Virus record (IMG/VR): IMGVR_UViG_3300020202_000066
Coordinates: 25,960 to 89,959 of that record
DNA: 64,000 nucleotides
Source: a virus
Direction: 5' to 3' (one strand)
Both the position numbers and the translations under genes were made by a program. The notes below the pieces were generated by a model. It was not told where the DNA came from, did no database searches, and was given only the letters and a program-made list of their open reading frames with translations. This document shows, piece after piece, positions 6,309 through 62,126 of this stretch. How positions within the stretch are numbered: position 1 is the first letter of the stretch; each line of letters opens with the position of its first letter.

Positions 6309-8023
6309 GACCGGTCGGAAGCGTGGTGCTGGACCCGGAGAAGCGCGCGTGGCGGATCGAGTGCGAGCCACACGTGATGCTCCGGTTGAAGCGCGTGTTC
6401 GCGAAGGTCAACCGCGGGAGTTACAGCACGGTGGATCTCGCGGACACGACCGAGAACGCGCGGGAGCTGCTGTGGTTCCTCGATCGGTACCCGATGACGA
6501 TCCTACCGAAGGGCTACCTGAAGGATAGAGCGGAGCAGCACATCGCCAAGCAGGCCCAGATCGCGGAGGTCTTGGCGCCGACGTACGTGCCGCGTTCGTT
6601 CGAGCTGGCGATCCCTCCTCGCGAATATCAGCGGCTCGCGGCGGACGTCGTGCTCAAGACCGGCGTGCTTCTCTTGGCGGACGATGTTGGGCTGGGAAAG
6701 ACTGTGTCGTCCATCACGATGATCTCCGATCCCCGGGCTCGGCCAGCGCTCGTAGTCACGCTGACCCATCTCCCTCGACAGTGGAAGGCGGAACTCGCCC
6801 GGTTCGCGCCCAACCTGCTGGTTCACATTCTGCGCAGTGGGAAGCCGTACGAACTCGAGCGGAAGCGCGCGTGTCGAGGCCGGACACCAGACGTGATCAT
6901 CACGAACTACCACAAGCTGGCCGGCTGGGCCGAGACGCTCGCCGGGCGAGTGAAGTCTGTCACGTTCGACGAGGCACAGGAGCTCCGCCACTCGGACACC
7001 GCCCGCTACGGCGCAGCGAAGCACCTTGCCGCGAAAGCGGCGTACGTCCTCGGCCTCACGGCCACGCCCATCTACAACTACGGCGGCGAGATCTACAACA
7101 TCCTCTCGTGCCTGCGGGAAGACTGCCTCGGGACGCCGGAGGAGTTCGGCCGCGAGTGGACCGGCGGCGCCATCTACGACAGCACCGCCAAGGTGATCGT
7201 GAAGGACCCTCGGAGTCTCGGTGCCTACCTCCGCACGTCCGGCCTGATGCTCCGTCGAACCCGTGCTGAGGTCGGCCGCGAGATTCCTCCGATCCAGACG
7301 GTGGTCCACGAGATCGATGCGGATCCCGACGCTCTCGACAAGGTCGCCGGTAACGCCGCCGAGCTCGCGCGGATCATCCTGGACCAGGGTGGCCAGAAGG
7401 GCTTCGTCAAGATGCAGGCCTCGGAGCAGCTCAGCTACCTGCTCCGACAGGCAACGGGCATCGCCAAGGCACCCTACGTCGCGGACTTCGTTCGCCTGCT
7501 CGTCGAGAGCGGCGAGCAGGTCGTGCTCTACGGCTGGCACCGAGAGGTCTACGCACTGTGGAGGGAGCGGCTCGCCGACCTGAAACCGGCGATGTACACC
7601 GGCTCGGAAACCACGTCCCAGAAGGAGGCAGCGAAGGCTGCGTTCCTCTCCGGGGAGGCGCGAGTGTTGCTGATCTCGCTCCGCGCTGGAGCCGGCCTTG
7701 ACGGGCTGCAGCGCAAGTGCCGCATCGTCGTCTTCGGGGAGCTGGATTGGAGCCCCGGGGTGCTTGAGCAGTGCATCGGGCGGGTCGCGCGTGACGGTCA
7801 GGAGGGGCAGGTTCTTGCGTACTACTTGGTCGCAGATTCGGGCTCCGATCCCGTCGTGTCCGACGTTCTCGGGCTGAAGAGCTCACAGTCTCATGCGATC
7901 CGCGATCCGGATGCCAAGCTGATTGAAGCCCAGACGGTCGATCCGGATCGTGTGAAGCGCCTGGCTCAGGCGTATCTCGAGCAGATCTCGAAGGCATCCG
8001 GCATGGAGGTGGATAGGTCGTGA
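6305..8023 (+). CDS. SNF2-family helicase/ATPase
   Basis: LLADDVGLGKT, DEAQ, LTATP, GLDGLQ, QCIGRVARDGQ. Confidence 0.92.
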   Translation: MRPVGSVVLDPEKRAWRIECEPHVMLRLKRVFAKVNRGSYSTVDLADTTENARELLWFLDRYPMTILPKGYLKDRAEQHIAKQAQIAEVLAPTYVPRSFELAIPPREYQRLAADVVLKTGVLLLADDVGLGKTVSSITMISDPRARPALVVTLTHLPRQWKAELARFAPNLLVHILRSGKPYELERKRACRGRTPDVIITNYHKLAGWAETLAGRVKSVTFDEAQELRHSDTARYGAAKHLAAKAAYVLGLTATPIYNYGGEIYNILSCLREDCLGTPEEFGREWTGGAIYDSTAKVIVKDPRSLGAYLRTSGLMLRRTRAEVGREIPPIQTVVHEIDADPDALDKVAGNAAELARIILDQGGQKGFVKMQASEQLSYLLRQATGIAKAPYVADFVRLLVESGEQVVLYGWHREVYALWRERLADLKPAMYTGSETTSQKEAAKAAFLSGEARVLLISLRAGAGLDGLQRKCRIVVFGELDWSPGVLEQCIGRVARDGQEGQVLAYYLVADSGSDPVVSDVLGLKSSQSHAIRDPDAKLIEAQTVDPDRVKRLAQAYLEQISKASGMEVDRS

Positions 8024-9778: not shown

Positions 9779-10543
9779 TCACAAGTCAGGGCGGCGAGGG
9801 CCGGGCCGTCTGCCTGCGCCGCGCACCGGCCGGCGCGGACCGGTCTGCTGGCGGCCGCGGCCGCTGGTATTGGCCCGCGGCGGCAGCCCGAGAGACCGCA
9901 TCCGGCCGCGCACCGATCGTTCCGATCGACGCAGGCGCGCCCCTATTTCCCTCAGAGTGAGGGACTTGTCCCGGAGCATGGCATCTTCCTCCCGCGTCCA
10001 CGTCCTCCGCCCAGTCCCGACGTGAGGGTCACGCGCTCGCCGTGCGCGCGCGTACTGCGTGCTCGAGTGCGGATGACGCCGGCGCCACGCAGCGTTGCTC
10101 CACCGGCTCTGACACGGACGACACGATTTGAGTCCCCGGGCTGGCCGGCGGCGGCCGCACACCGGACAGAGGCCGGCGGCTGTCCTCTCGGCCCTCCGCC
10201 GATCGAGGGCCTCTCGCGCGCGCTGGCGCGACTCGTCCGGGGGGAGCGCCTGGCGGAGTCGGATTATCCCAAGCAGGTGGGCACGCATGGCGCATGCTTG
10301 TTCGCTCCGGCCGATCGTCTCGGCCACCTGCGCAAGCGTCAAGCGCGTGTCCGCCAGCGTGCGGTCCTCCGCCGCGGACCACGGACGCGGCGGCGGTCGT
10401 AGGAGCGGCAGGCCGAGCTTGTAGCGTCGCTGGATGCAGGCGACGCGGCTGCGCCCGATCCGAGCAGCCAGCGCGTTGATGTCGCGCGCGCGCCTGAGCG
10501 CGGCGTCCTCCGTTGCGGTCCATGGTCTACTCGATGATGTCAT
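9779..10543 (-). CDS. Repeat HTH/Myb-like DNA-binding protein with Zn-finger
   Basis: Three W[TS]..ED..L...A..IGRS repeats; CPVC..C..C. Confidence 0.6.
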   Translation of the reverse strand: MTSSSRPWTATEDAALRRARDINALAARIGRSRVACIQRRYKLGLPLLRPPPRPWSAAEDRTLADTRLTLAQVAETIGRSEQACAMRAHLLGIIRLRQALPPDESRQRAREALDRRRAERTAAGLCPVCGRRRPARGLKSCRPCQSRWSNAAWRRRHPHSSTQYARARRARDPHVGTGRRTWTREEDAMLRDKSLTLREIGARLRRSERSVRGRMRSLGLPPRANTSGRGRQQTGPRRPVRGAGRRPGPRRPDL

Positions 10544-10793
10544 TCCCTCACTCCGACCTTCGCCGGGCTGCGTGCCCCGCCGCCCCCCCCATCATCTTCG
10601 CGGGGTGCGCGCCCGCGGCCACCCCCGAGCCAAGGAGGACCGCATGCCCGGCGACACCCGCGCCCTCCGCGGGGTCGCCCGCCTCACCGGGAAGGACCCC
10701 GCCGCGCTGCTGCCCGCGCTCGTGCGGAACGGGCTGCTGAGGCAGGCGAGGGGCCGGTTTGGACGTATCGGGAGCGAGCCGGGCGCGCCGGGC

Positions 10794-11296
10794 TCAACGA
10801 GCCGGGCGTCCGCTGTCAATCTCGCCCCTGACCTCGATGCCGGGGGATTCGATCACGGTGAACACGCCAGAACACCGCTTGGCGTACTCGACCGCCTCTT
10901 CTCGGCTCGGGAACGCCAAGCTGTGGCCAGGGTCGTAGGGAAGTCCGCCGACGTGCACCGCGATTCGCCATGTACCGTTCTGCTGCACGCCGCTATCGTC
11001 ATGGATCAGCGGCATCTCGAAGATGAAGAGCCGCACCTGATCCTGCCCTCGCTTCATCGCTCCTCCTTGTTCGTCGCGCACCCACACTCGACCGCGGGCA
11101 CCAGCGAGCAGCACGGCGGCAGCCGTCGGGCGTTCTGCTGGTCGCGGCACCACAGCACGTCGTCTGCCACCTCGGCGCGGGTGCCTACGAGCTGGTGCTC
11201 CGCCGGGTGCCGACCGGTGCAGCGCAGGCACCACCGCTCGAGGGTCGACTCGTCCTCGATCCGGGGAATCTTGCCGCCGACGCCGGTCCAGGTCAT
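10794..11296 (-). CDS. Two small hypothetical ORFs (11054-11296; ~10794-11057)
   Basis: RBS and ATGA coupling. Confidence 0.45.
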
Positions 11297-11412
11297 GTTG
11301 CTCCTCTCGCCCGGGTCTCCGCCCGCGCTTCGCCTACTTCTTCTCCCACGCCCCTCGGAGAGGGGCCCGCGCCTGGCTGGCGCGGGCTGTGGACTGGGCT
11401 AGTCAGGCCCTG

Positions 11413-11493: not shown

Positions 11494-11587
11494 AGGCTCC
11501 CTCCTTTCAGGGGCCCCAGTGGCTGCTGGGGCTTCTGTGACCCGGGTGTCGGGTCAACGGGATGGGGCCTTTTCCTTTTCTCCTGCC

Positions 11588-15726: not shown

Positions 15727-16191
15727 CTAGGGCTCGGGCGCGATCTCACTCCGGGCAGGTTCGCGCTCCGCCCCGGTCTCGGTCGAGCCGTCGGGGAACA
15801 CCACGATGCAGGGAACGCCGCTTTTCCGGGCGAAATCGATCGTGTACCACGTACCGCCGCGAGCCTGGTGCGTGGACTCGCGCGGGCAGCCGATGATGAG
15901 GTCGACACTCCGCACGATCGCCCGATTCCGAGCGAAGTGAGTGGCTGGAGGGGCGACCTCATCGTTGAAGGAGAAGCAACCCTGCCATGGGTCGCCGTCG
16001 GGACCGGGCATGGAGTGGATCCGCGGGCGCGGCTGCATCTTGTCCGCGATGGCGGCTACCTCGACGTCGACGCCGCTGCACTGCCCGTGGACGAACAGTG
16101 CCGGGCGGTGCTCCTGAAGGAGGTCGAGCACGCGCTCGCGCTGCGCAGGCGTCATCCCGTAGCGGGTTCCGGTGATTCCGATTCGGGTCAT
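15727..16191 (-). CDS. SLOG-superfamily nucleotide-binding protein
   Basis: IGITGTR, HG.C.GVD, ARNRAIV, GGTWYTI. Confidence 0.75.
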   Translation of the reverse strand: MTRIGITGTRYGMTPAQRERVLDLLQEHRPALFVHGQCSGVDVEVAAIADKMQPRPRIHSMPGPDGDPWQGCFSFNDEVAPPATHFARNRAIVRSVDLIIGCPRESTHQARGGTWYTIDFARKSGVPCIVVFPDGSTETGAEREPARSEIAPEP

Positions 16192-16489
16192 CGCTGCTAC
16201 CTCGCGATCTTGGTTTCGAGAGATCACGATAGCATGTCGTTCAGGTGGCGGTCGCTGGCCTTGGACGGCCGACGCGCTTGCACGTCACCTTGAACTTCCG
16301 GAACTCCTGGATGCTCAGCAGCTCTGGCGCGGCCGCGGAGAGGTACACGATCAGCACGTCTCCGGCGCCGACACCCACCGAGACCAGCCCACGAGTGCCG
16401 GACTTGTCCAGGCTGGCGTAGAGTTCACGTGCGGCGGTGGCGGCCGTCATAGCTCGAAGCGTACCAGCTCTGGCGGCAAGCGAACGCGA

Positions 16490-16571
16490 TGGGGCCGTGC
16501 CGAATCGAACGGCCAAGCGCGGCGGCATCTGCTCTACAGGCAGACGGTGGATCCCACTCCCCAGCAGCCCC
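16490..16571 (-). tRNA. tRNA-Tyr(GTA)
   Basis: tctgc-ctGTAga-gcaga; long variable arm. Confidence 0.8.
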
Positions 16572-16582
16572 GGGAACCGAAG

Positions 16583-16657
16583 TACCGCCAGCGGGATTCG
16601 AACCCGCACTGTCACGACTCTCGATCGTGTGCCTCTGCCAGGTTGGGCTACGGCGGC
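16583..16657 (-). tRNA. tRNA-Leu(GAG), short variable loop, C33
   Basis: cacga-tcGAGag-tcgtg. Confidence 0.75.
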
Positions 16658-16664
16658 AAGAAAG

Positions 16665-16748
16665 TACCCGGGGTGGGAGTCGAACCCACAAATGGACTCG
16701 CGTCCGCTGGGTCTGAGCCAGCTGGCTATCCCGTTCGCCTACCCGGGC
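16665..16748 (-). tRNA. tRNA-Leu(CAG)
   Basis: gctgg-ctCAGac-ccagc. Confidence 0.85.
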
Positions 16749-16764
16749 AAGATGAACCGCACCA

Positions 16765-16837
16765 TGCCGACCCGCGGGATCGCACCGCGTTCTCCCGCTC
16801 TTCAGGCGGGCGTGAGGACTACCTTCACCAGATCGGC
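16765..16837 (-). tRNA. tRNA-Phe(GAA)
   Basis: cccgc-ctGAAga-gcggg; TGC T-loop. Confidence 0.8.
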
Positions 16838-16848
16838 GAGAGATCGCG

Positions 16849-16922
16849 TGCCCGCCCCGGGATTCGAACCCGGAACCTTCCGCTTTTGAGACGGATGCCT
16901 CTACCGGTTGGACCAGGCGGGC
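16849..16922 (-). tRNA. tRNA-Leu(CAA), short variable loop
   Basis: tccgt-ctCAAaa-gcgga. Confidence 0.85.
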
Positions 16923-16927
16923 GAGAG

Positions 16928-16998
16928 CAGGCCCTGACGGATTCGAACCGCCACCCGACGGGTTGGAGCCGTCGATGCTGCCGTTACACCAAGGACCT
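16928..16998 (-). tRNA. tRNA-Trp(CCA)
   Basis: gacgg-ctCCAac-ccgtc. Confidence 0.9.
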
Positions 16999-17014
16999 GA
17001 GTGGGGAGTGCAGC

Positions 17015-17090
17015 TGGCTCCGGGAGCAGGGATCGAACCTGCGGCGGACCGGTTAACAGCCGGCTGCTCTGCCAACTGAGCTATCCCGGA
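17015..17090 (-). tRNA. tRNA-Asn(GTT)
   Basis: Canonical cloverleaf with encoded CCA. Confidence 0.92.
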
Positions 17091-17096
17091 GCGAGC

Positions 17097-17168
17097 TGGT
17101 TGCGGGCCCGGGTGTCGATCCCGGCATTCCAGGCTTATGAGGCCCGGCTGATCGCCGAATCGCCCGCA
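17097..17168 (-). tRNA. tRNA-Met(CAT), initiator-like, reduced D-arm
   Basis: ccgggc-ctCATaa-gcctgg; ends cccgcaacca. Confidence 0.75.
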
Positions 17169-17187
17169 ACGAGTTAGGGCTGGGCCG

Positions 17188-17364
17188 TCAGGCCCCGGGA
17201 TTGAGAAGGCGCAGAAGGCACCAGGCCCATGCGGGCCCGGTAAAGAGGGGGAGCCGCCACAAGTGCGGCCGTGCAGCGGGATAACGCCGAGGGACGGACG
17301 TGGTGGTCGGGAGCGCAGCACCGACCGCGGGCGCTGCCGGGCGGATCGAATGCTGTCCAGTCAT
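17188..17364 (-). promoter_or_regulatory. Putative leader ORF (58 aa) for the Met/Asn/Trp/Leu/Phe/Tyr tRNA sub-cluster
   Basis: GAGGAG RBS; 3' half contains TAT, TTG, TGGx3, CTC/CTT, TTT, CTG, AAT. Confidence 0.65.
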
Positions 17365-17435
17365 CGGTGGCTCCTCGGGGCACGTCAGGCCCTCGGGGTC
17401 GACGTAGGATCCGACGGCGGCGGTGGGTGCAATAA

Positions 17436-17506
17436 AGGCCCCAGAGAGAATCGAACTCTCGCCACCGGGTTACAAAGCCGGCGCTCGACCTTCGAGCTAT
17501 GAGGCC
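17436..17506 (-). tRNA. tRNA-Thr(TGT), imperfect stems
   Basis: ttTGTaa loop; T-arm gagag-ttcgatt-ctctc. Confidence 0.7.
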
Positions 17507-17510
17507 GAAG

Positions 17511-17582
17511 AGCCCTGACGGCGGATCGAACGCCGGTCTGCTGCTTACGAAACAGCCATCCTACCAACTGGACGATCAGGGC
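17511..17582 (-). tRNA. tRNA-Thr(CGT)
   Basis: gctgt-ttCGTaa-gcagc. Confidence 0.88.
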
Positions 17583-17585
17583 TGA

Positions 17586-17657
17586 AGCTCTCGCCGGGGG
17601 TCGAACCCGGGTTTCGGTCTTACCAAGACCGCGTGCTACCAGCTGCACCACGGGAGC
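17586..17657 (-). tRNA. tRNA-Thr(GGT)
   Basis: cggtc-ttGGTaa-gaccg. Confidence 0.88.
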
Positions 17658-17661
17658 GGAG

Positions 17662-17733
17662 TGCGGGTCGAGCGAGTCGAACGCTCTCATCCAGTTTGGA
17701 AGACTGGCATGCAACCACCAACATCTGGCCCGC
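17662..17733 (-). tRNA. tRNA-Gly(TCC)
   Basis: ccagt-ctTCCaa-actgg. Confidence 0.85.
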
Positions 17734-17743
17734 ATGAAACTGA

Positions 17744-17816
17744 AGTGCCCGGCGGGGCTCGAACCCGCGACCTCCTCGTTGGCAACGAGGCGTTCCGCCA
17801 ACCGAACTCCGAGCAC
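17744..17816 (-). tRNA. tRNA-Gly(GCC)
   Basis: cctcg-ttGCCaa-cgagg. Confidence 0.85.
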
Positions 17817-17820
17817 AGGA

Positions 17821-17893
17821 TGTGGCGAGAGGGAGTCGAACCCTCGTGACCGGATTCACAGCCCGGCGCCTGTACCGCTCGGCCATCGCCACC
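17821..17893 (-). tRNA. tRNA-His(GTG)
   Basis: ccggg-ctGTGaa-tccgg; G-1 encoded. Confidence 0.88.
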
Positions 17894-17911
17894 ACGATCA
17901 GCACTCGAACC

Positions 17912-17988
17912 TGGCGAACATGATGGGACTCGCACCCACTTTCTCCGGCGTGACGGGCCGGCGTCTCGACTGCTTCGACCTCATGTCC
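17912..17988 (-). tRNA. tRNA-Asp(GTC), C33
   Basis: ccggc-ccGTCac-gccgg; encoded CCA. Confidence 0.8.
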
Positions 17989-17992
17989 GTAG

Positions 17993-18066
17993 TTCGCCCG
18001 GAGGGACTCGAACCCCCGAAATGGCTGGGTGTAGGCCAGCTGCCTTTGCCGCTTGGCGACGGGCGA
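17993..18066 (-). tRNA. tRNA-Val(TAC), C33
   Basis: gctgg-ccTACac-ccagc. Confidence 0.82.
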
Positions 18067-18071
18067 ATGGA

Positions 18072-18142
18072 TGGAGCTCCAGGGAATCGAACCCTGATCT
18101 GCCGGGTGCAAGCCGACCGTCCTCCCGTTGAACGAGAGCCCC
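18072..18142 (-). tRNA. tRNA-Ala(TGC)
   Basis: GGGGC 5' end, G3:U70, ctTGCac loop. Confidence 0.88.
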
Positions 18143-18143
18143 A

Positions 18144-18183
18144 GAAAGAGAAACCCCCGGGCCAGGTGAGTGGTCCGGGGGCC
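18144..18183 (-). terminator. Intrinsic terminator (attenuator) immediately 5' of tRNA-Ala
   Basis: cccccggacc-loop-ggcccggggg then tttctctttct. Confidence 0.85.
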
Positions 18184-18206
18184 TTGAGCGCGCTCTTCAG
18201 TTCGCG

Positions 18207-18284
18207 CTACAGGGCGGACCACCCGCCGGCATCGACGCCGGCCGCGTGTGCGGTCGTCCCTGTGTGCACAGTGAAGAGCAGCAT
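18207..18284 (-). promoter_or_regulatory. Leader peptide MLLFTVHTGTTAHAAGVDAGGWSAL
   Basis: gatAGGAGacgaccATG; rich in T/V/H/G/A/D codons; gggtggtccg can pair with terminator arm cggaccactc. Confidence 0.8.
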
Positions 18285-18323
18285 GGTCGTCTCCTATCAC
18301 GGTCGTGGCTATCGCGGTGCAAG

Positions 18324-18395
18324 TCCTCGCGGAGAGATTCGAACTCCCAGCCGTCTGGTTCGAAGCCAGCCGCTCTTCCGCTGAGCTACGCGAGG
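18324..18395 (-). tRNA. tRNA-Arg(TCG)
   Basis: ctgg-ctTCGaa-ccag. Confidence 0.85.
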
Positions 18396-18399
18396 ATGA

Positions 18400-18472
18400 T
18401 GTACCCGGCAAGGCTCGAACTTGCGGCCGCCCTGGTAGGAACAGGGTGCTCCTCCGACTGAGCTACGGATGC
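18400..18472 (-). tRNA. tRNA-Arg(CCT)
   Basis: ccctg-ttCCTac-caggg. Confidence 0.85.
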
Positions 18473-18491
18473 AGGAGCCACACACGGGAAC

Positions 18492-18569
18492 TGGTCTGCG
18501 CGGAGGGACTCGAACCCCCGGTCTCCTGCTCCCAAGGCAGGCGCTTTCGCCAGGCTAAGCTACGCGCAG
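18492..18569 (-). tRNA. tRNA-Pro(TGG)
   Basis: cctgc-ctTGGga-gcagg; encoded CCA. Confidence 0.9.
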
Positions 18570-18572
18570 AGA

Positions 18573-18643
18573 TGCACCCACGTGGAATCGAACCACGGGC
18601 TCGGTCTTCGGAGGACCGCATCCTTCCTCTGGACGATGGGTGC
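18573..18643 (-). tRNA. tRNA-Arg(CCG)
   Basis: cggtc-ctCCGaa-gaccg. Confidence 0.88.
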
Positions 18644-18647
18644 TGCT

Positions 18648-18718
18648 TGGTGCCTCTGTCGGGAGTCGAACCCGATGGGCAGCCTTCGCAGGGCTGCCTC
18701 CAATCCCCTGGCAGAAGC
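18648..18718 (-). tRNA. tRNA-Arg(GCG), reduced D-arm
   Basis: cagcc-ctGCGaa-ggctg; encoded CCA. Confidence 0.72.
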
Positions 18719-18725
18719 ACGGAAG

Positions 18726-18797
18726 TAGGCCGTCGTGGTGCTGCCCCACGCTCCTCCGACTTATAAGGTCGGCGCTCTGCTGATGAGCTAACGGCCC
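18726..18797 (-). tRNA. tRNA-Ile(TAT)
   Basis: ccgac-ctTATaa-gtcgg; atypical T-loop ggcagca. Confidence 0.8.
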
Positions 18798-18818
18798 AGA
18801 TGGCCGGGAAGCGTGGAG

Positions 18819-18905
18819 CTATATACGCCGTCGGGGAGACGGCACCGGGGGTGGGCAGAATGGTCGCCTCGGGGCGAAGCTGGTGAGTGCGATGTGGGCG
18901 ACCAT
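18819..18905 (-). promoter_or_regulatory. Putative leader peptide MVAHIALTSFAPRRPFCPPPVPSPRRRI
   Basis: Contains AGG, CGA, CCA/CCG and ends CGA CGG CGT ATA TAG, matching the six downstream tRNAs. Confidence 0.7.
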
Positions 18906-18946
18906 GGTCCAGCGTAGCGCGCACGCGCGGTGGCTGGTGCAGATGA

Positions 18947-19033
18947 CGGAGAGCCAGAGACTCGAACTCTGACGCGGTGAACCGCCCGCCGGGTAGCAAC
19001 CGGGGCCCGATACCAGTTACGGGATAGCTCTCC
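18947..19033 (-). tRNA. tRNA-Ser(GCT)
   Basis: GGAGAG 5' end, ttGCTac loop, long variable arm. Confidence 0.88.
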
Positions 19034-19041
19034 AGGAACAG

Positions 19042-19122
19042 AGGAGGGCGGAGGTGTCGATCCCCGAGCCCGAAGGCCCCACCGTTTTCAAGACGGCTTG
19101 CCGCGCCGGCGGCGCGCCCTCC
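19042..19122 (-). tRNA. tRNA-Ser(TGA)
   Basis: gccgt-ctTGAaa-acggt, long variable arm. Confidence 0.8.
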
Positions 19123-19136
19123 AGGAACAACACCAG

Positions 19137-19206
19137 AACGCTGGCCGGGAATCGAACCCGGGCCGGTACCTTTGCAGGGCACCTCCGCGCCACGCGAATC
19201 CAGCGC
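19137..19206 (-). tRNA. tRNA-Cys(GCA)
   Basis: gtgcc-ctGCAaa-ggtac; U73. Confidence 0.8.
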
Positions 19207-19246
19207 AAAGAGAAAGCCCCCGGCGGTCCTGTGACTGCCGGGGGCT
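19207..19246 (-). terminator. Intrinsic terminator (attenuator) immediately 5' of tRNA-Cys
   Basis: agcccccggcagtc-loop-gaccgccgggggct then ttctcttt. Confidence 0.85.
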
Positions 19247-19264
19247 CTCGATCCTGCGTCGTCG

Positions 19265-19333
19265 TCAGGGCGTCGAGACTCCCGGCCAGCCGGCGCCGCG
19301 GGAACTCGACGAACAGGTGACGATGCGGATCAT
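19265..19333 (-). promoter_or_regulatory. Leader peptide MIRIVTCSSSSRGAGWPGVSTP
   Basis: gatAGGAGcagaccATG; TGT TCG TCG AGT TCC control codons; antiterminator complementarity. Confidence 0.8.
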
Positions 19334-19409
19334 GGTCTGCTCCTATCCGCGTCGGGACGCGGTGGGTGCACGCTCGGGCGATCGAAGGAGGTTCACGGGG
19401 GGGAAGAGG

Positions 19410-19712
19410 CTAGACGCCGACGGAGACGACCTTTCCCAGGATCGCGGTCCGCTTGACCCAACCGTTGATGCGGCCGATGTTGTTCCCGATGAGAGCTCGG
19501 TCTCCCTGCAGCTGCTTGACCAGATGCAAGAGGAATCCTCCACGCCAGCGGACGAACACCGCGTCTCCGACCGCTACGGCCATGGGATCGACCGGCGCGA
19601 TGGTCACGAGCTCGCCGCTCTCGATCCGGCCGCGCATCGACCCCCCGAGCGGACGAACCTTCGCGACTCGACCAGCAGAGATCTCCCGCAGCGCATCCGA
19701 TGCCCAGCCCAT
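19410..19712 (-). CDS. Peptidase S24/S26-like domain protein inside the tRNA array
   Basis: G.SM...I..GE.V..P..GD.V...LH.V motif. Confidence 0.65.
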   Translation of the reverse strand: MGWASDALREISAGRVAKVRPLGGSMRGRIESGELVTIAPVDPMAVAVGDAVFVRWRGGFLLHLVKQLQGDRALIGNNIGRINGWVKRTAILGKVVSVGV

Positions 19713-19801
19713 CGCCTGACTCCTCCGGCGACCTTCGTGCGGCCGCCACCGATGCCGGGCGAGTAGGTCGCGCGCTGCGATTCGGGTGCGCGGATCTCGA
19801 G

Positions 19802-19887
19802 AGGACCGGAAGGGGATCGAACCCTTCGTGCGCCTCGCGGCGCGACGGCTTAAAAGGCCGCTGCCGACACCAGTCGGCCACCGGTCC
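19802..19887 (-). tRNA. tRNA-Lys(TTT) with long variable arm
   Basis: gcggc-ctTTTaa-gccgt; variable hairpin gcgcc-gcga-ggcgc. Confidence 0.75.
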
Positions 19888-19889
19888 GA

Positions 19890-19960
19890 TACCCCCGCCA
19901 GGAATTGCACCTGGGTCTCCACGTCATCAGCGTGGCATCCTGCTGTTGAACGACGGGGAT
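19890..19960 (-). tRNA. tRNA-Ile(GAT), G37
   Basis: ccacg-ctGATga-cgtgg. Confidence 0.8.
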
Positions 19961-19965
19961 GCGGA

Positions 19966-20037
19966 TGAACCCGCCGGGATTCGCACCCGGATGCCCGGAT
20001 TAAGAGTCCGGTCCGTTGCTGTTACGGTCACGGGTCC
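19966..20037 (-). tRNA. tRNA-Lys(CTT)
   Basis: ccgga-ctCTTaa-tccgg. Confidence 0.85.
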
Positions 20038-20049
20038 AGAGGAGGGGAG

Positions 20050-20122
20050 CAGCTCCTGATCGTGTCGAGCGATCACCTTCCGGGTCAAAGCCGGACGTGC
20101 AGAGCCGCTACACCAAGCAGCC
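20050..20122 (-). tRNA. tRNA-Gln(TTG)
   Basis: tccgg-ctTTGac-ccgga. Confidence 0.75.
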
Positions 20123-20131
20123 GGGGGAGAG

Positions 20132-20202
20132 CAGCCGCCCAGGGAATCGAACCCCGACCCTCTCGGTCAGAACGAGGTGTGCTGCCACTACACCCGGCGG
20201 CT
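20132..20202 (-). tRNA. tRNA-Gln(CTG)
   Basis: ctcg-ttCTGac-cgag. Confidence 0.82.
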
Positions 20203-20397
20203 TCGGAATTGATCCAGCTGGTTGACGGTGGGGCGGTGAAGCGAGAGCAGCGCCTCACTCTTACCCGCCGAGCGCCCTCGGCAGACCCCTCCGCCGACCA
20301 GCTACGCCTGGCGTTGCTGGATGGGTTTGGCCCGTCCGGGCCCGGGAATGCCGGCACCCGCGACGGGCCGACGCTTGAGCAGGAAGGAGCGGAGGAG

Positions 20398-20470
20398 TAG
20401 CCCGCCAGGGACTCGAACCCTGCTTTCCTGGCTGAGAACCAGGTGTCCTGGCCGGATAGACGAGCGGGCC
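20398..20470 (-). tRNA. tRNA-Glu(CTC)
   Basis: cctgg-ttCTCag-ccagg. Confidence 0.9.
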
Positions 20471-20476
20471 ATGAGA

Positions 20477-20548
20477 TAGCCCGCCGGAGACTCGAACTCC
20501 GCTTCCCCGTTTGAAGGACGGGGGACTTCACCCATAGTCGAGCGGGCC
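20477..20548 (-). tRNA. tRNA-Glu(TTC), C33
   Basis: cccgt-ccTTCaa-acggg. Confidence 0.85.
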
Positions 20549-20674
20549 GCGAGGAACGCGAGAAGGGCCCCGAGGGGCCGGCGTTCGAGCGGACCGGTGA
20601 GCGAGGGTGAGGAGTGCATGCGCCGGCATAGCGCTGCCCGGCCGGCGCGGGTGCATGTCGAGGACGACTGCGAG

Positions 20675-20941
20675 CTACTGGCCCGTCGACGTCGGATGCG
20701 GAGGCGGGTTGGTTTCGAGGTGCTCGAGCAGCGCGCGTACTGCGCAATCCTTCGACTCGATCAGCTTCCTGAGCGCCACGGTGCGCTCCGCGCTGCCGGG
20801 GAGCATCTGGACGAGCTGGTGAGCTAGCACGCAGTACGGCTCGCTGGCCTTCTGCAAGAAGAACGGCAGGTGCGCGAAGCGGAAGAACTTCAGCAGGGGC
20901 TCGGGGGGCGGTGCCGCGGGGACTTCGGTCGTGTCGGTCAT
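20675..20941 (-). CDS. Small helical phage protein (possible Acb2/Tad1-like hairpin)
   Basis: FF.F.HLP..LQ..S...LP..AERTVALRKL.E.KDCAVRA; GAGGAG RBS. Confidence 0.6.
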   Translation of the reverse strand: MTDTTEVPAAPPPEPLLKFFRFAHLPFFLQKASEPYCVLAHQLVQMLPGSAERTVALRKLIESKDCAVRALLEHLETNPPPHPTSTGQ

Positions 20942-21452
20942 AGGCAGACTCTCCTCGTGGTCGGAGCCAGAATGACTTGGGCGTCGGTGTGAGCCGCTGG
21001 AAGCTCCCCGGCGTCAGGGCCCCGCGTGCGATGGAACCGGGTCTTGTCCCCACGGGCCTGTGCTTCGGCCAACCTCGACCGTCAGCAGCTCGGGCGAACC
21101 GTAGGCGCGCCGGGGCGCGGGCGCAAGCACTGTCAGCCGGGGATAGCGAGGGCCACCAGGCTGACGACCGCGACCGACTCCAGGATCGCGACGAAGTCGA
21201 ACAGCAGGATGGCTCGCTCCGTCGGCTCGAACGACCTTCCGTCGAGCCAACGGGCGATCAGGTACGTCACGGATACCTCCCTTCAGCGCGGCAGCACGAC
21301 CTCCGTCGGCGTGTGTCCGTTCACCAGGTAGTAGATCAGCCCGTGCCAGCCGTAGCAGTGAACGATCCACGCGAGGATCGGGATCCCGATGAGGATGAAG
21401 AGGATGAGCACGGCGGCTTCATCGGATGATTCGCCGCGTCGGTTGAGGCGGG

Positions 21453-21728
21453 TCACTTCGCATCGTCTCCCACACCGGTGAACTTCACCGAGCAGCGGAG
21501 GTGCTTGCCGGGCGTGCTGGCCCACCAGTCGTAGAGCCACGCGACGAGGGCGAACGGGGTCACGAGGAGGGCGCACACGCCGGCGACCAGCAGAGGTCCG
21601 CCGATCAGAAGGATGACCAAGAGCCACGGGAAGGCCAGCGGCGTGCAGCCGAGCGCAGCAACCCACCCCGGCCAGATCTGAAAGCCCCATCCGATCAGGG
21701 ACACGATCGCGAGCGCATATGGCATCAC
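21453..21728 (-). CDS. Small membrane protein
   Basis: Two to three hydrophobic segments. Confidence 0.5.
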   Translation of the reverse strand: MMPYALAIVSLIGWGFQIWPGWVAALGCTPLAFPWLLVILLIGGPLLVAGVCALLVTPFALVAWLYDWWASTPGKHLRCSVKFTGVGDDAK

Positions 21729-25844: not shown

Positions 25845-26158
25845 TGCTGGACCACTTCCTGAGAATTCCGGAAAATTTTGGGGAGGAGAGAGGGGGACCG
25901 ATTTTGGAAAAATGGGATGTTACGAGGGGGGGCTACCGGGACCCCCTCCGAGGCGGTAATAATTCCCCACCCTGCCGCGGTGGCCCGCGCCGCCGAGGCA
26001 CGCCCGCCGGACCGAGCTGTCGGCTGCTGCCGACACCGAGCCGCGCTCGGCGCGGTCGACTCGGCTGGCCTGTCGAGGTCGAAACCTGTTGCGCACACCC
26101 CGAGAATCGGGTATGAGAATGGTACTTCTGGTTTGAAGTCGACGAGAGGAGTGCGGCG

Positions 26159-61227: not shown

Positions 61228-61298
61228 GCCTCCGTGGGCCAGTGGCTGGCCAGTCGGCTTCAAACCGATGCAGGCCGGTTCGATCCCGGCCGGGGGCG
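61228..61298 (+). tRNA. tRNA with UCA anticodon (opal suppressor-like)
   Basis: gcctccg/cgggggc acceptor, ggcca/tggcc D-stem, gtcgg-ctTCAaa-ccgat, gccgg-ttcgatc-ccggc; TATGCT -10-like box just upstream. Confidence 0.85.
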
Positions 61299-61312
61299 CA
61301 TAGGAGGTCCCC

Positions 61313-61663
61313 ATGGTCTTCACGTGAATCTCCGATCCCGCCTATGTGTACGTCCTAGTGCGCTCTGACCTCACGGTTCCGCAGCAGGCAGTGCAGTCTG
61401 CCCATGCCGTGCTTGAGGCATCCCGCCAAGGCCTGATCCCCGCAGGCATCGATCACCCGAATCTCGTCCTCTGCCACGTGTCCGGGTTCACCCAGCTTCT
61501 CGATGAGGCGGAAAATCTCCGCGCGCTGGGAGTTCAGCTGGCCGTCTTCAACGACTCGGATCACAAGTTCCCATCCACCGCTCTCGCAACGGAGCCGATC
61601 CGCGGCGACCGCCGCCGACTCTTCAAACGGTTTAGGCTTCTCAAGGAGGCCATCCATGCCTAG
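61313..61663 (+). CDS. Peptidyl-tRNA hydrolase 2-like protein with in-frame TGA at codon 5
   Basis: AGGAGG RBS then ATG GTC TTC ACG TGA; YV.VRSDL..Q.AVQS.HA...TALATEP...F..F.LL. Confidence 0.75.
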
Positions 61664-62126
61664 CGCCCAGCCCATCGAACAGCAGCCCGTCACCCATCGC
61701 AGCCGCTGGGGATTCCATCCCTGCAGCCATGCCACCTTCCTGAAGTTGAAGGCGCTCAAGAAGGCGTACTGGGAGGCAGTGCGCGGACTGGCGCGGTGGA
61801 TCCGCTGGAACAGGAAGCTGCCAGCGAACCAGGTGCGAACCGAGATCATCCGAGACACCCAGGGGCGTCCGTGCGGCCGGCGTGTGCTCGGCCCGATCCC
61901 GGAGCCGATCTACTGCCCGGTGTTCGGTCGCGTGACGAAGCTCAACCCGTCCCGGACGGTGCCGGGCCAGCTGGCGGACTACAAGATCGACGAGGCCGTA
62001 GCGATTGCTCGCCGGCCGACCGAGGAGCCGTTCGAGAAGCCACTGCCGATCTCCGAGGCGTTCATCGATGAGCTGTACGATCGGCTCGTGGAGTGGGAGA
62101 GACTGCCGAAGATCAGCGCCGAGTAG
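61656..62126 (+). CDS. Hypothetical phage protein
   Basis: AGGAGG RBS; SRWGFHPC motif. Confidence 0.6.
   Translation: MPSAQPIEQQPVTHRSRWGFHPCSHATFLKLKALKKAYWEAVRGLARWIRWNRKLPANQVRTEIIRDTQGRPCGRRVLGPIPEPIYCPVFGRVTKLNPSRTVPGQLADYKIDEAVAIARRPTEEPFEKPLPISEAFIDELYDRLVEWERLPKISAE

Follow-up and report, generated by a model that had tools for sequence, protein, structure and literature searches.

We analysed a window of 64,000 nucleotides, positions 25,960 to 89,959 of the IMG/VR virus record IMGVR_UViG_3300020202_000066; coordinates count from the first letter of this window, and (+) and (−) mark the strand. The record is 89,959 bp long, with 65% G+C and an estimated completeness of 72%, and its gene products include a terminase, a portal, a head protease, integrases and an ECF-type sigma factor. 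Between 20548 and 16490 (−) it carries an array of 33 tRNA genes in which each of the 20 amino acids is represented. Of these genes, 29 were called by ARAGORN, and those for Asp, Ile(UAU), Lys(CUU) and Arg(GCG) were added by Rfam or by relaxed ARAGORN. Defined by gaps of more than 100 nt, the array falls into six blocks.

One of these blocks, at 17436..18142 (−), consists of nine tRNA genes found by ARAGORN and Rfam together: Ala(UGC), Val(UAC), Asp(GUC), His(GUG), Gly(GCC), Gly(UCC), Thr(GGU), Thr(CGU) and Thr(UGU). The tRNA-Asp gene at 17988-17915 (−) was missed by ARAGORN and is found by Rfam alone (44.7 bits, anticodon GUC). The 5′ end of tRNA-Ala lies at 18142 according to Rfam or at 18143 according to ARAGORN. 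Upstream, the preceding gene is tRNA-Arg(UCG), whose 3′ end is at 18323, and the 179-nt gap between the two tRNAs holds the candidate attenuator studied here, which we call module A. Two other occupants of the gap were considered and rejected: a pseudo-tRNA, since 18144-18322 has no tRNA-like match, and a plus-strand gene, since the plus-strand ORFs that overlap module A traverse tRNA genes.

Several tRNA genes of this soil phage have unusual features. The tRNA-Asp(GUC) has a C rather than U at position 33. The tRNA-Lys(UUU) gene at 19887-19801 (−) is 87 nt long, has a long extra arm and scores above the cut-off of the tRNA-Sec model. Far from the array, at 61228-61299 (+), there is a tRNA with anticodon UCA that ARAGORN labels SeC; it adjoins an ORF at 61503-62126 for which there was no Pfam match. 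The gene for the ECF-type sigma factor, at 25844-25278 (−), matches Sigma70_r2 (2.8e-11) and r4_2 (7e-6) and lies about 5 kb upstream of the tRNA array on the same strand.

The leader ORF ahead of the Ala-to-Thr block

Module A begins with a TTGCACC box at 18316..18322 (−), 1 nt past the 3′ end of tRNA-Arg(UCG), a candidate promoter −35 element or processing signal. It is followed by a Shine-Dalgarno-like site, GATAGGAG, at 18291..18298 (−), 6 nt ahead of an ATG at 18284-18282 (−), in the arrangement AGGAG-N6-ATG. This ATG opens a leader ORF, MLLFTVHTGTTAHAAGVDAGGWSAL, at 18207..18284 (−), comprising 25 codons and a TAG at 18209-18207. The whole genome contains four copies of GATAGGAG on its two strands, two of which precede leader A and the leader of a second module, B, described below; Shine-Dalgarno-like motifs stand ahead of 12 of 26 roughly called phage genes.

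Codons 5-21 of the leader form a continuous run, TVHTGTTAHAAGVDAGG, at 18222..18272 (−), in which all 17 codons specify Ala, Val, Asp, His, Gly or Thr, exactly the six amino acids that the nine tRNAs downstream carry. The four Thr positions are occupied by ACT, ACA, ACG and ACC, one copy each, ahead of a block with three Thr tRNAs; from phage codon usage, four different codons at four Thr positions would be expected by chance with a probability of ~0.03. A sequence-only reading of this DNA had reported the RBS, the 25-aa leader, the restriction of its core to the amino acids of the downstream tRNAs and the full set of Thr codons, and all of these were found in the sequence as it described them.

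Every one of the nine tRNAs of the block decodes at least one leader codon, six with a Watson-Crick pair at the third position and three by wobble. Under standard wobble, the Ala(UGC) and Val(UAC) tRNAs of the block do not read GCC, which occurs twice among the 17 control codons, or GTC, which occurs once, so that host tRNAs would be needed for these three codons. Rare A/T-ending codons are not enriched in leader A (4/18, tail 0.55); they are enriched in two other spacer ORFs of the array, leaders C (6/14) and D (5/11). The case for codon-level tuning of leader A is weak. A natural variant at 18246, with A for G on the plus strand, changes leader codon 13 from CAC to the synonymous CAT, which tRNA-His(GUG) still decodes; this variant comes from a single low-depth contig (2.7x) in a third soil run and is weakly supported.

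The box at the head of module A recurs. TGCACC stands at the start of five array spacers, at 18321, 19370, 18941, 17431 and 20655 (−), in each case just after the preceding tRNA or gene, which places five of the 27 minus-strand copies in the 90-kb genome within ~920 nt of spacer. The distance from TGCACC to GATAGGAG is identical in modules A and B. These boxes may serve the phage's own sigma factor as a −35 element, or may be signals for processing; a search for sigma-70-like promoters found none. Were TGCACC part of a promoter whose −10 element is GATAGG, the mRNA might have almost no leader ahead of the ATG, in which case AGGAG would not act as a Shine-Dalgarno sequence.

Spacer ORFs and the tRNA blocks downstream of them

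About 1 kb upstream of module A, at 19207..19372 (−), lies module B, which has the same order of parts: a TGCACC box, GATAGGAG-N6-ATG, an ORF and a terminator. Its 22-codon ORF, MIRIVTCSSSSRGAGWPGVSTP, has Cys and Ser control codons, and its terminator abuts tRNA-Cys, which is followed by two Ser tRNAs. The two modules share the box, RBS, spacing, terminator base and U-tract; the bodies of their ORFs are unalignable, and the inner terminator stem and its partner strand in the leader differ together. At the level of sequence, the pair represents within-genome covariation of the control codons with the tRNAs that they would regulate.

Three more spacers contain an ORF that resembles the block after it. 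In spacer C, at 18944-18798 (−), an ORF ...PRRPFCPPPVPSPRRRI, ending CGA CGG CGT ATA TAG, precedes Ile(UAU), four Arg tRNAs and Pro; spacer D, at 17435-17169 (−), has an ORF ...HLWRLPLFTGPAWAWCLLRLLNPGA ahead of Met, Asn, Trp, three Leu, Phe and Tyr. Both are without a terminator. The ORF of spacer E, at 20396-20203 (−), reads ...GRAKPIQQRQA and precedes two Gln, two Lys and an Ile tRNA; it has no canonical start codon and no terminator, and is followed by structured RNA (z −2.5).

Such matches have to be weighed against chance, namely an accidental open frame in a GC-rich spacer beside an ordinary terminator. Spurious ORFs are abundant in GC-rich DNA, with 75 ORFs of at least 20 aa overlapping these 5 kb, and A, G, V, T and D are frequent residues; in random frames of this genome the set A, V, D, H, G, T has a frequency of 0.37. 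Against that background the best segment of the module A spacer still has a binomial p of 4e-8. Over the six frames of the 89,959-bp genome there are two runs of at least 17 residues of this set; that of leader A is the second longest, and the longest is a GAT simple repeat.

We also scored the best segment of each spacer against the amino acid set of each block, in a 6 x 6 matrix. The block immediately downstream gave the top score, by row and by column, for five of the six spacers, with the matched sets QKI, CS, IRP, AVDHGT and MNWLFY, and the real assignment of spacers to blocks ranked best among the 720 permutations. The exception in this matrix was the spacer ahead of two Glu tRNAs, which has no matched ORF. 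This array-wide pattern is the strongest argument against chance. The Shine-Dalgarno sequence of module A also lies at a canonical distance from the ATG, and the structural tests described below gave 0/200 shuffles in two modules. We therefore consider an accidental frame very unlikely.

A side test on other phage arrays gave mixed results. In Mycobacterium phage Bonray (MK112533.1), a 14-codon ORF at 7600-7644 of locus L414, MFARLSLSSSLRLS, lies directly before a Ser and three Leu tRNAs, and 9 of 10 residues belong to the Ser/Leu set (p 1e-6). A weaker, marginal case, MFEIRPPEPRWRYQPSLGR, at 969-1028 of locus L415, precedes Pro, Trp and Tyr tRNAs; its Trp-Tyr codons pair with the stretch immediately ahead of the tRNA to give a 12-bp hairpin. 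Both Bonray ORFs start 7 nt downstream of a TTGC(A/G)C-N17/18-TAC(A/C)GT promoter-like site and may therefore be leaderless. In the spacer-by-set matrix for Bonray, the diagonal gave the row maximum in only 2 of 11 cases, and none of four gaps examined in Variovorax phage V45v66 was convincing.

The predicted terminator and its modelled competition with the leader strand

Downstream of the leader ORF of module A is a predicted terminator hairpin at 18153..18183 (−), with a bulged stem and a folding energy of −21.3 kcal/mol. Its 5′ arm spans 18183-18171, its loop 18170-18165 and its 3′ arm 18164-18153. The U-rich tract that follows, TTTCTCTTTCT, at 18143..18153 (−), is broken by a C and abuts tRNA-Ala directly, as the sequence-only reading had it: the tail runs to 18143 and the tRNA starts at 18142 or 18143. 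With the tract touching the first base of tRNA-Ala there is no room for a promoter, so read-through is the only way in which the nine tRNAs can be expressed.

Searching both strands of the whole genome for hairpins of −15 kcal/mol or stronger that close beside a 9-mer with at least seven T, we found three strong sites. Two of them have a codon-matched ORF on one side and a tRNA on the other, namely ahead of tRNA-Ala in module A and ahead of tRNA-Cys in module B. The third, at ~11525-11580 (+), follows a gene at 10434-11402. A simple consensus terminator scanner returned four sites in 16000-21500, and neither that of module A nor that of module B was among them; its rules, as we read them, suggest that the bulged stem falls outside what they accept.

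The 5′ arm of the terminator has a second possible partner within the leader ORF. The strand CGGCGGGUGGUCCGCCC, at 18212..18228 (−), corresponds to codons 19-24 and is covered by a ribosome standing at the stop codon; we refer to it as region 2. Within it, gggtggtccg (18224-18215) can form 10 pairs, one of them G-U, with cggaccactc (18177-18168), which lies within the terminator hairpin and is region 3. The sequence-only reading had pointed out this complementarity, and the same helix recurs in our folds. Between the two strands, just after the stop codon, a small GC hairpin folds at 18187..18206 (−); it is enclosed by the antiterminator helix and also takes part in a 1:2 pairing with codons 2-4. 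Folded without constraint, the leader has an energy of −84.2 kcal/mol (z −3.6), which 0/200 shuffles reach; in this fold the early codons pair around and after the stop codon (1:2) and the terminator is formed (3:4).

We then modelled the effect of ribosome position by placing a ribosome at each codon in turn and folding just the stretch of RNA that lay 3′ of the ribosome's footprint. As long as the P site was at one of codons 1-17, CGGCGGGUGGUCCGCCC had already paired with 9 of the 13 nt in the terminator 5′ arm before the 3′ arm existed; for P sites at codons 20-26, the number was 0 of 13. The advantage of the terminator changed in parallel: it was 6-7 kcal/mol for a stalled ribosome, ~13.5 for one at codons 1-3 and ~20 for one at the end of the ORF (6.7 stalled versus 20.3 at the end). 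When the stretch from the ATG to the terminator was dinucleotide-shuffled 200 times, no shuffle came down to the stalled value (shuffle mean 17.7, sd 2.6) or matched the difference between stalled and end, and footprints of 12 and 18 nt gave the same outcome (0/100 each). Module B behaved likewise, with a terminator advantage of 13.5 versus 28.4 kcal/mol and 0/200 shuffles. Competition between the two structures in silico thus depends on where the ribosome stands. The duplex between leader and terminator arm, taken bare, is not unusual for GC-rich RNA, being equalled by 104 of 1,000 shuffles for module A and 31 of 1,000 for module B.

The sequence-only reading had proposed that stalling at the control codons would free the antiterminator. 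In the model this holds for codons 1-17, and the last control codons, ~18-21, are too near the region 2 strand to act. It had also called for the alternative structures to be folded; the competing helix appeared and depended on ribosome position, and the terminator nonetheless won at equilibrium. It was lost at only 3 of 26 ribosome positions when the footprint was masked in the full RNA, and at 2 of 26 in the downstream-only model. Antitermination would therefore have to be kinetic, as it is in the trp attenuator.

This dominance of the terminator, at 23/26 and 24/26 modelled positions in the two models, also suits a simpler view, in which a constitutive, leaky terminator or insulator sets the ratio between tRNA blocks and the mini-ORF has no control role. 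The weak result of the bare-duplex test fits that view too, as does the fact that the three other matched ORFs work, if they work at all, without a terminator. What it leaves unexplained is why the ORF is spelled in the amino acids of the downstream block, why the dependence on ribosome position lies far beyond that of shuffled sequences, and why the same design appears with other codons before Cys and Ser. We think it unlikely.

A further alternative keeps translation of the mini-ORF as the signal and moves the control point away from the intrinsic terminator. Ribosome position could alter the folding of the precursor, and hence its processing by RNase P/E or the stability of the first tRNAs, or translation could gate Rho-dependent termination. 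None of the three matched ORFs of spacers C, D and E is followed by an intrinsic terminator, and in module A the hairpin and U-tract touch the RNase P site of tRNA-Ala, both of which speak for such a route. Yet of the mere three strong terminator-like sites that the genome has, two are in modules A and B, and the alternative pairing in these modules is aimed specifically at the terminator arm. We consider this route quite improbable.

The reading that we favour is that module A is a ribosome-mediated (leader-peptide) transcription attenuator in the style of trp, thr and ilv that gates tRNA genes, and we put its probability at roughly 60%. Module A has an RBS and start codon, an ORF upstream of the tRNA genes and on their strand, control codons above chance and a predicted intrinsic terminator, together with an antiterminator strand that, in silico, is free with the ribosome at codons 1-17 and covered at codons 20-26. 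The observation from which this work set out was confirmed in every detail, and the interpretation of it as an attenuator is supported in silico: all the sequence-level predictions that could be tested held, among them the like geometry of module B with its Cys and Ser codons.

Under the attenuator reading, polymerase would reach module A either by running on out of the tRNA blocks upstream or by starting at a TGCACC-box promoter, and the 25-codon ORF would be translated while it is being transcribed. When Thr, Val, His, Gly, Ala and Asp codons are decoded fast, the ribosome would reach the last codons or the stop codon and cover CGGCGGGUGGUCCGCCC; the terminator would then form, and transcription would stop at the U-tract one base before tRNA-Ala. 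When a matching charged tRNA is scarce, the ribosome would stall at the early control codons (~5-17) and leave CGGCGGGUGGUCCGCCC free to pair with the terminator 5′ arm before the 3′ arm has been made, allowing read-through into the nine tRNAs. The phage would thus probably produce the nine tRNAs chiefly at times when they are in short supply for its ribosomes. The trigger would presumably be depletion or cleavage of host tRNAs, or starvation. As the tRNA product would relieve the stall, the circuit would amount to negative feedback on tRNA supply.

Extended to the whole array, this suggests a broader reading that we offer tentatively, as possible at clearly less than even odds: the 33-tRNA array would be a modular system for on-demand tRNA replacement, in which each block has a sensor ORF written in its own amino acids. 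As parts of that reading, the Ala-Thr and Cys-Ser sensors would be intrinsic-terminator attenuators, the other three would use another ribosome-dependent route, and exactly the block whose host counterparts had been depleted, for example by defence anticodon nucleases, would be switched on. Transcription of the blocks may start at the TGCACC boxes under the phage's own ECF sigma factor. The principle of a sensor ORF may be widespread in phage tRNA arrays, with the Ser/Leu mini-ORF of Bonray as a hint.

Known systems, relatives and what the module would mean

Enterobacteria have several leader peptides of this kind, among them trpL, hisL, leuL and pheL, and some are multivalent: thr senses Thr and Ile, and ilv senses Ile, Val and Leu. 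Module A resembles them in its short ORF with control codons, in the opposition of terminator and antiterminator, in the covering of the antiterminator strand by a ribosome at the stop codon and, as in the multivalent leaders, in a single leader that would sense several amino acids. It differs in being phage-borne and in regulating, on our reading, tRNAs rather than biosynthetic enzymes; in sampling six amino acids with one to four codons each, where the enterobacterial leaders have long runs of one or two; and in a terminator that abuts the 5′ end of a tRNA. None of the Rfam Thr, His, Trp, Leu and Phe leader families matched; only tRNAs reached the gathering threshold, and nothing within 18144-18322 matched an Rfam model at E values up to 1.

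Two other systems are close in logic. In E. coli, the pheM leader controls pheST, which encodes phenylalanyl-tRNA synthetase. This, too, is leader-peptide attenuation of a component of the translation apparatus, with feedback on decoding capacity; unlike module A, pheM is cellular, acts on a synthetase gene and responds to one amino acid. T-box riboswitches work without an ORF, by direct binding of uncharged tRNA. Module A would share with them the sensing of tRNA status and the switching of a terminator and antiterminator upstream of translation-related genes; the Rfam T-box model, with its specifier loop and T-box motif, gave no match at module A. Phage tRNA arrays of the T5 type and in mycobacteriophages have been described as replacements for depleted or cleaved host tRNAs, and the array described here is likewise a large phage-borne set, of 33 tRNAs for 20 amino acids. 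Among the texts open to a full-text literature search, we found no published leader-peptide control of tRNA genes, phage arrays included. What module A would represent, if its function is as its sequence suggests, is a known attenuation mechanism applied to tRNA genes in a phage.

We looked for relatives of the module in several ways. Among viral contigs, a scan for the terminator pattern gave 109 stretches, of which one was near tRNAs, and those tRNAs lay upstream of the site. The RBS-ATG-terminator pattern gave 30 stretches, none with a tRNA near the match, and the TGCACC-GATAGGAG-ATG pattern gave 16, none with a short ORF ahead of tRNAs; one of these 16 lies on a contig of 64% GC that ends at the match. 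Single-query searches with TerL and with an 88-aa upstream protein returned no relatives. Used as an alignment, the 88-aa protein led to 80 loci, 77 of them without tRNAs and none with an array.

A 100-aa protein encoded inside the tRNA array was more productive as a query. In viral contigs it gave a single locus, in a 618-kb phage with two tRNAs; in metagenome contigs it gave 80 loci, four of them with tRNA arrays (L156, L159, L169 and L192), and in genome contigs another 80, one of them with an array (L206). In L159, L169 and L206, inspection by eye of the 13 gaps that measure 60-450 nt turned up no codon-matched ORF. The module pattern had no matches in the 201 genomes of a Gemmata genome's family, where TerL is 24-50% identical (~30-40% over matches spanning most of the protein). 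In a phage collection, blastn gave only tRNA-sized matches, and tblastn with the 100-aa protein gave 11 distant records. Since none of these searches found a relative with the module, there is no covariation across genomes to set beside that between modules A and B. No RNA runs were listed as holding the module A sequence; the three DNA runs yielded contigs only, and this DNA may itself come from two of these runs.

The gene for the 100-aa protein itself is at 19712-19410 (−). The protein has more than 350 homologues, the top named ones being from Gemmata, Zavarzinella and other Planctomycetota, and shows a weak, sub-threshold match to Peptidase_S24. Its homologues lie inside tRNA arrays on four metagenome contigs and one MAG contig, and in Gemmata-like genomes they adjoin Ser and Arg tRNAs. 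Gemmataceae-like planctomycetes are a lead as to the host.

Leader-peptide attenuation is a textbook mechanism that has been tied to amino acid biosynthesis and to a few synthetase genes. If our reading is true, the same logic regulates tRNA genes, with direct feedback from decoding speed to tRNA supply, and phages go beyond the mere carriage of tRNAs to deploy them conditionally, block by block. The long-standing question of why phages carry tRNA arrays, whether to suit codon usage or to replace host tRNAs that defence nucleases have destroyed, would then become directly testable: a toxin that cleaves a known set of tRNAs should induce the matching block only. As compact natural devices that sense decoding capacity for several amino acids, the modules would also be potential reporters.
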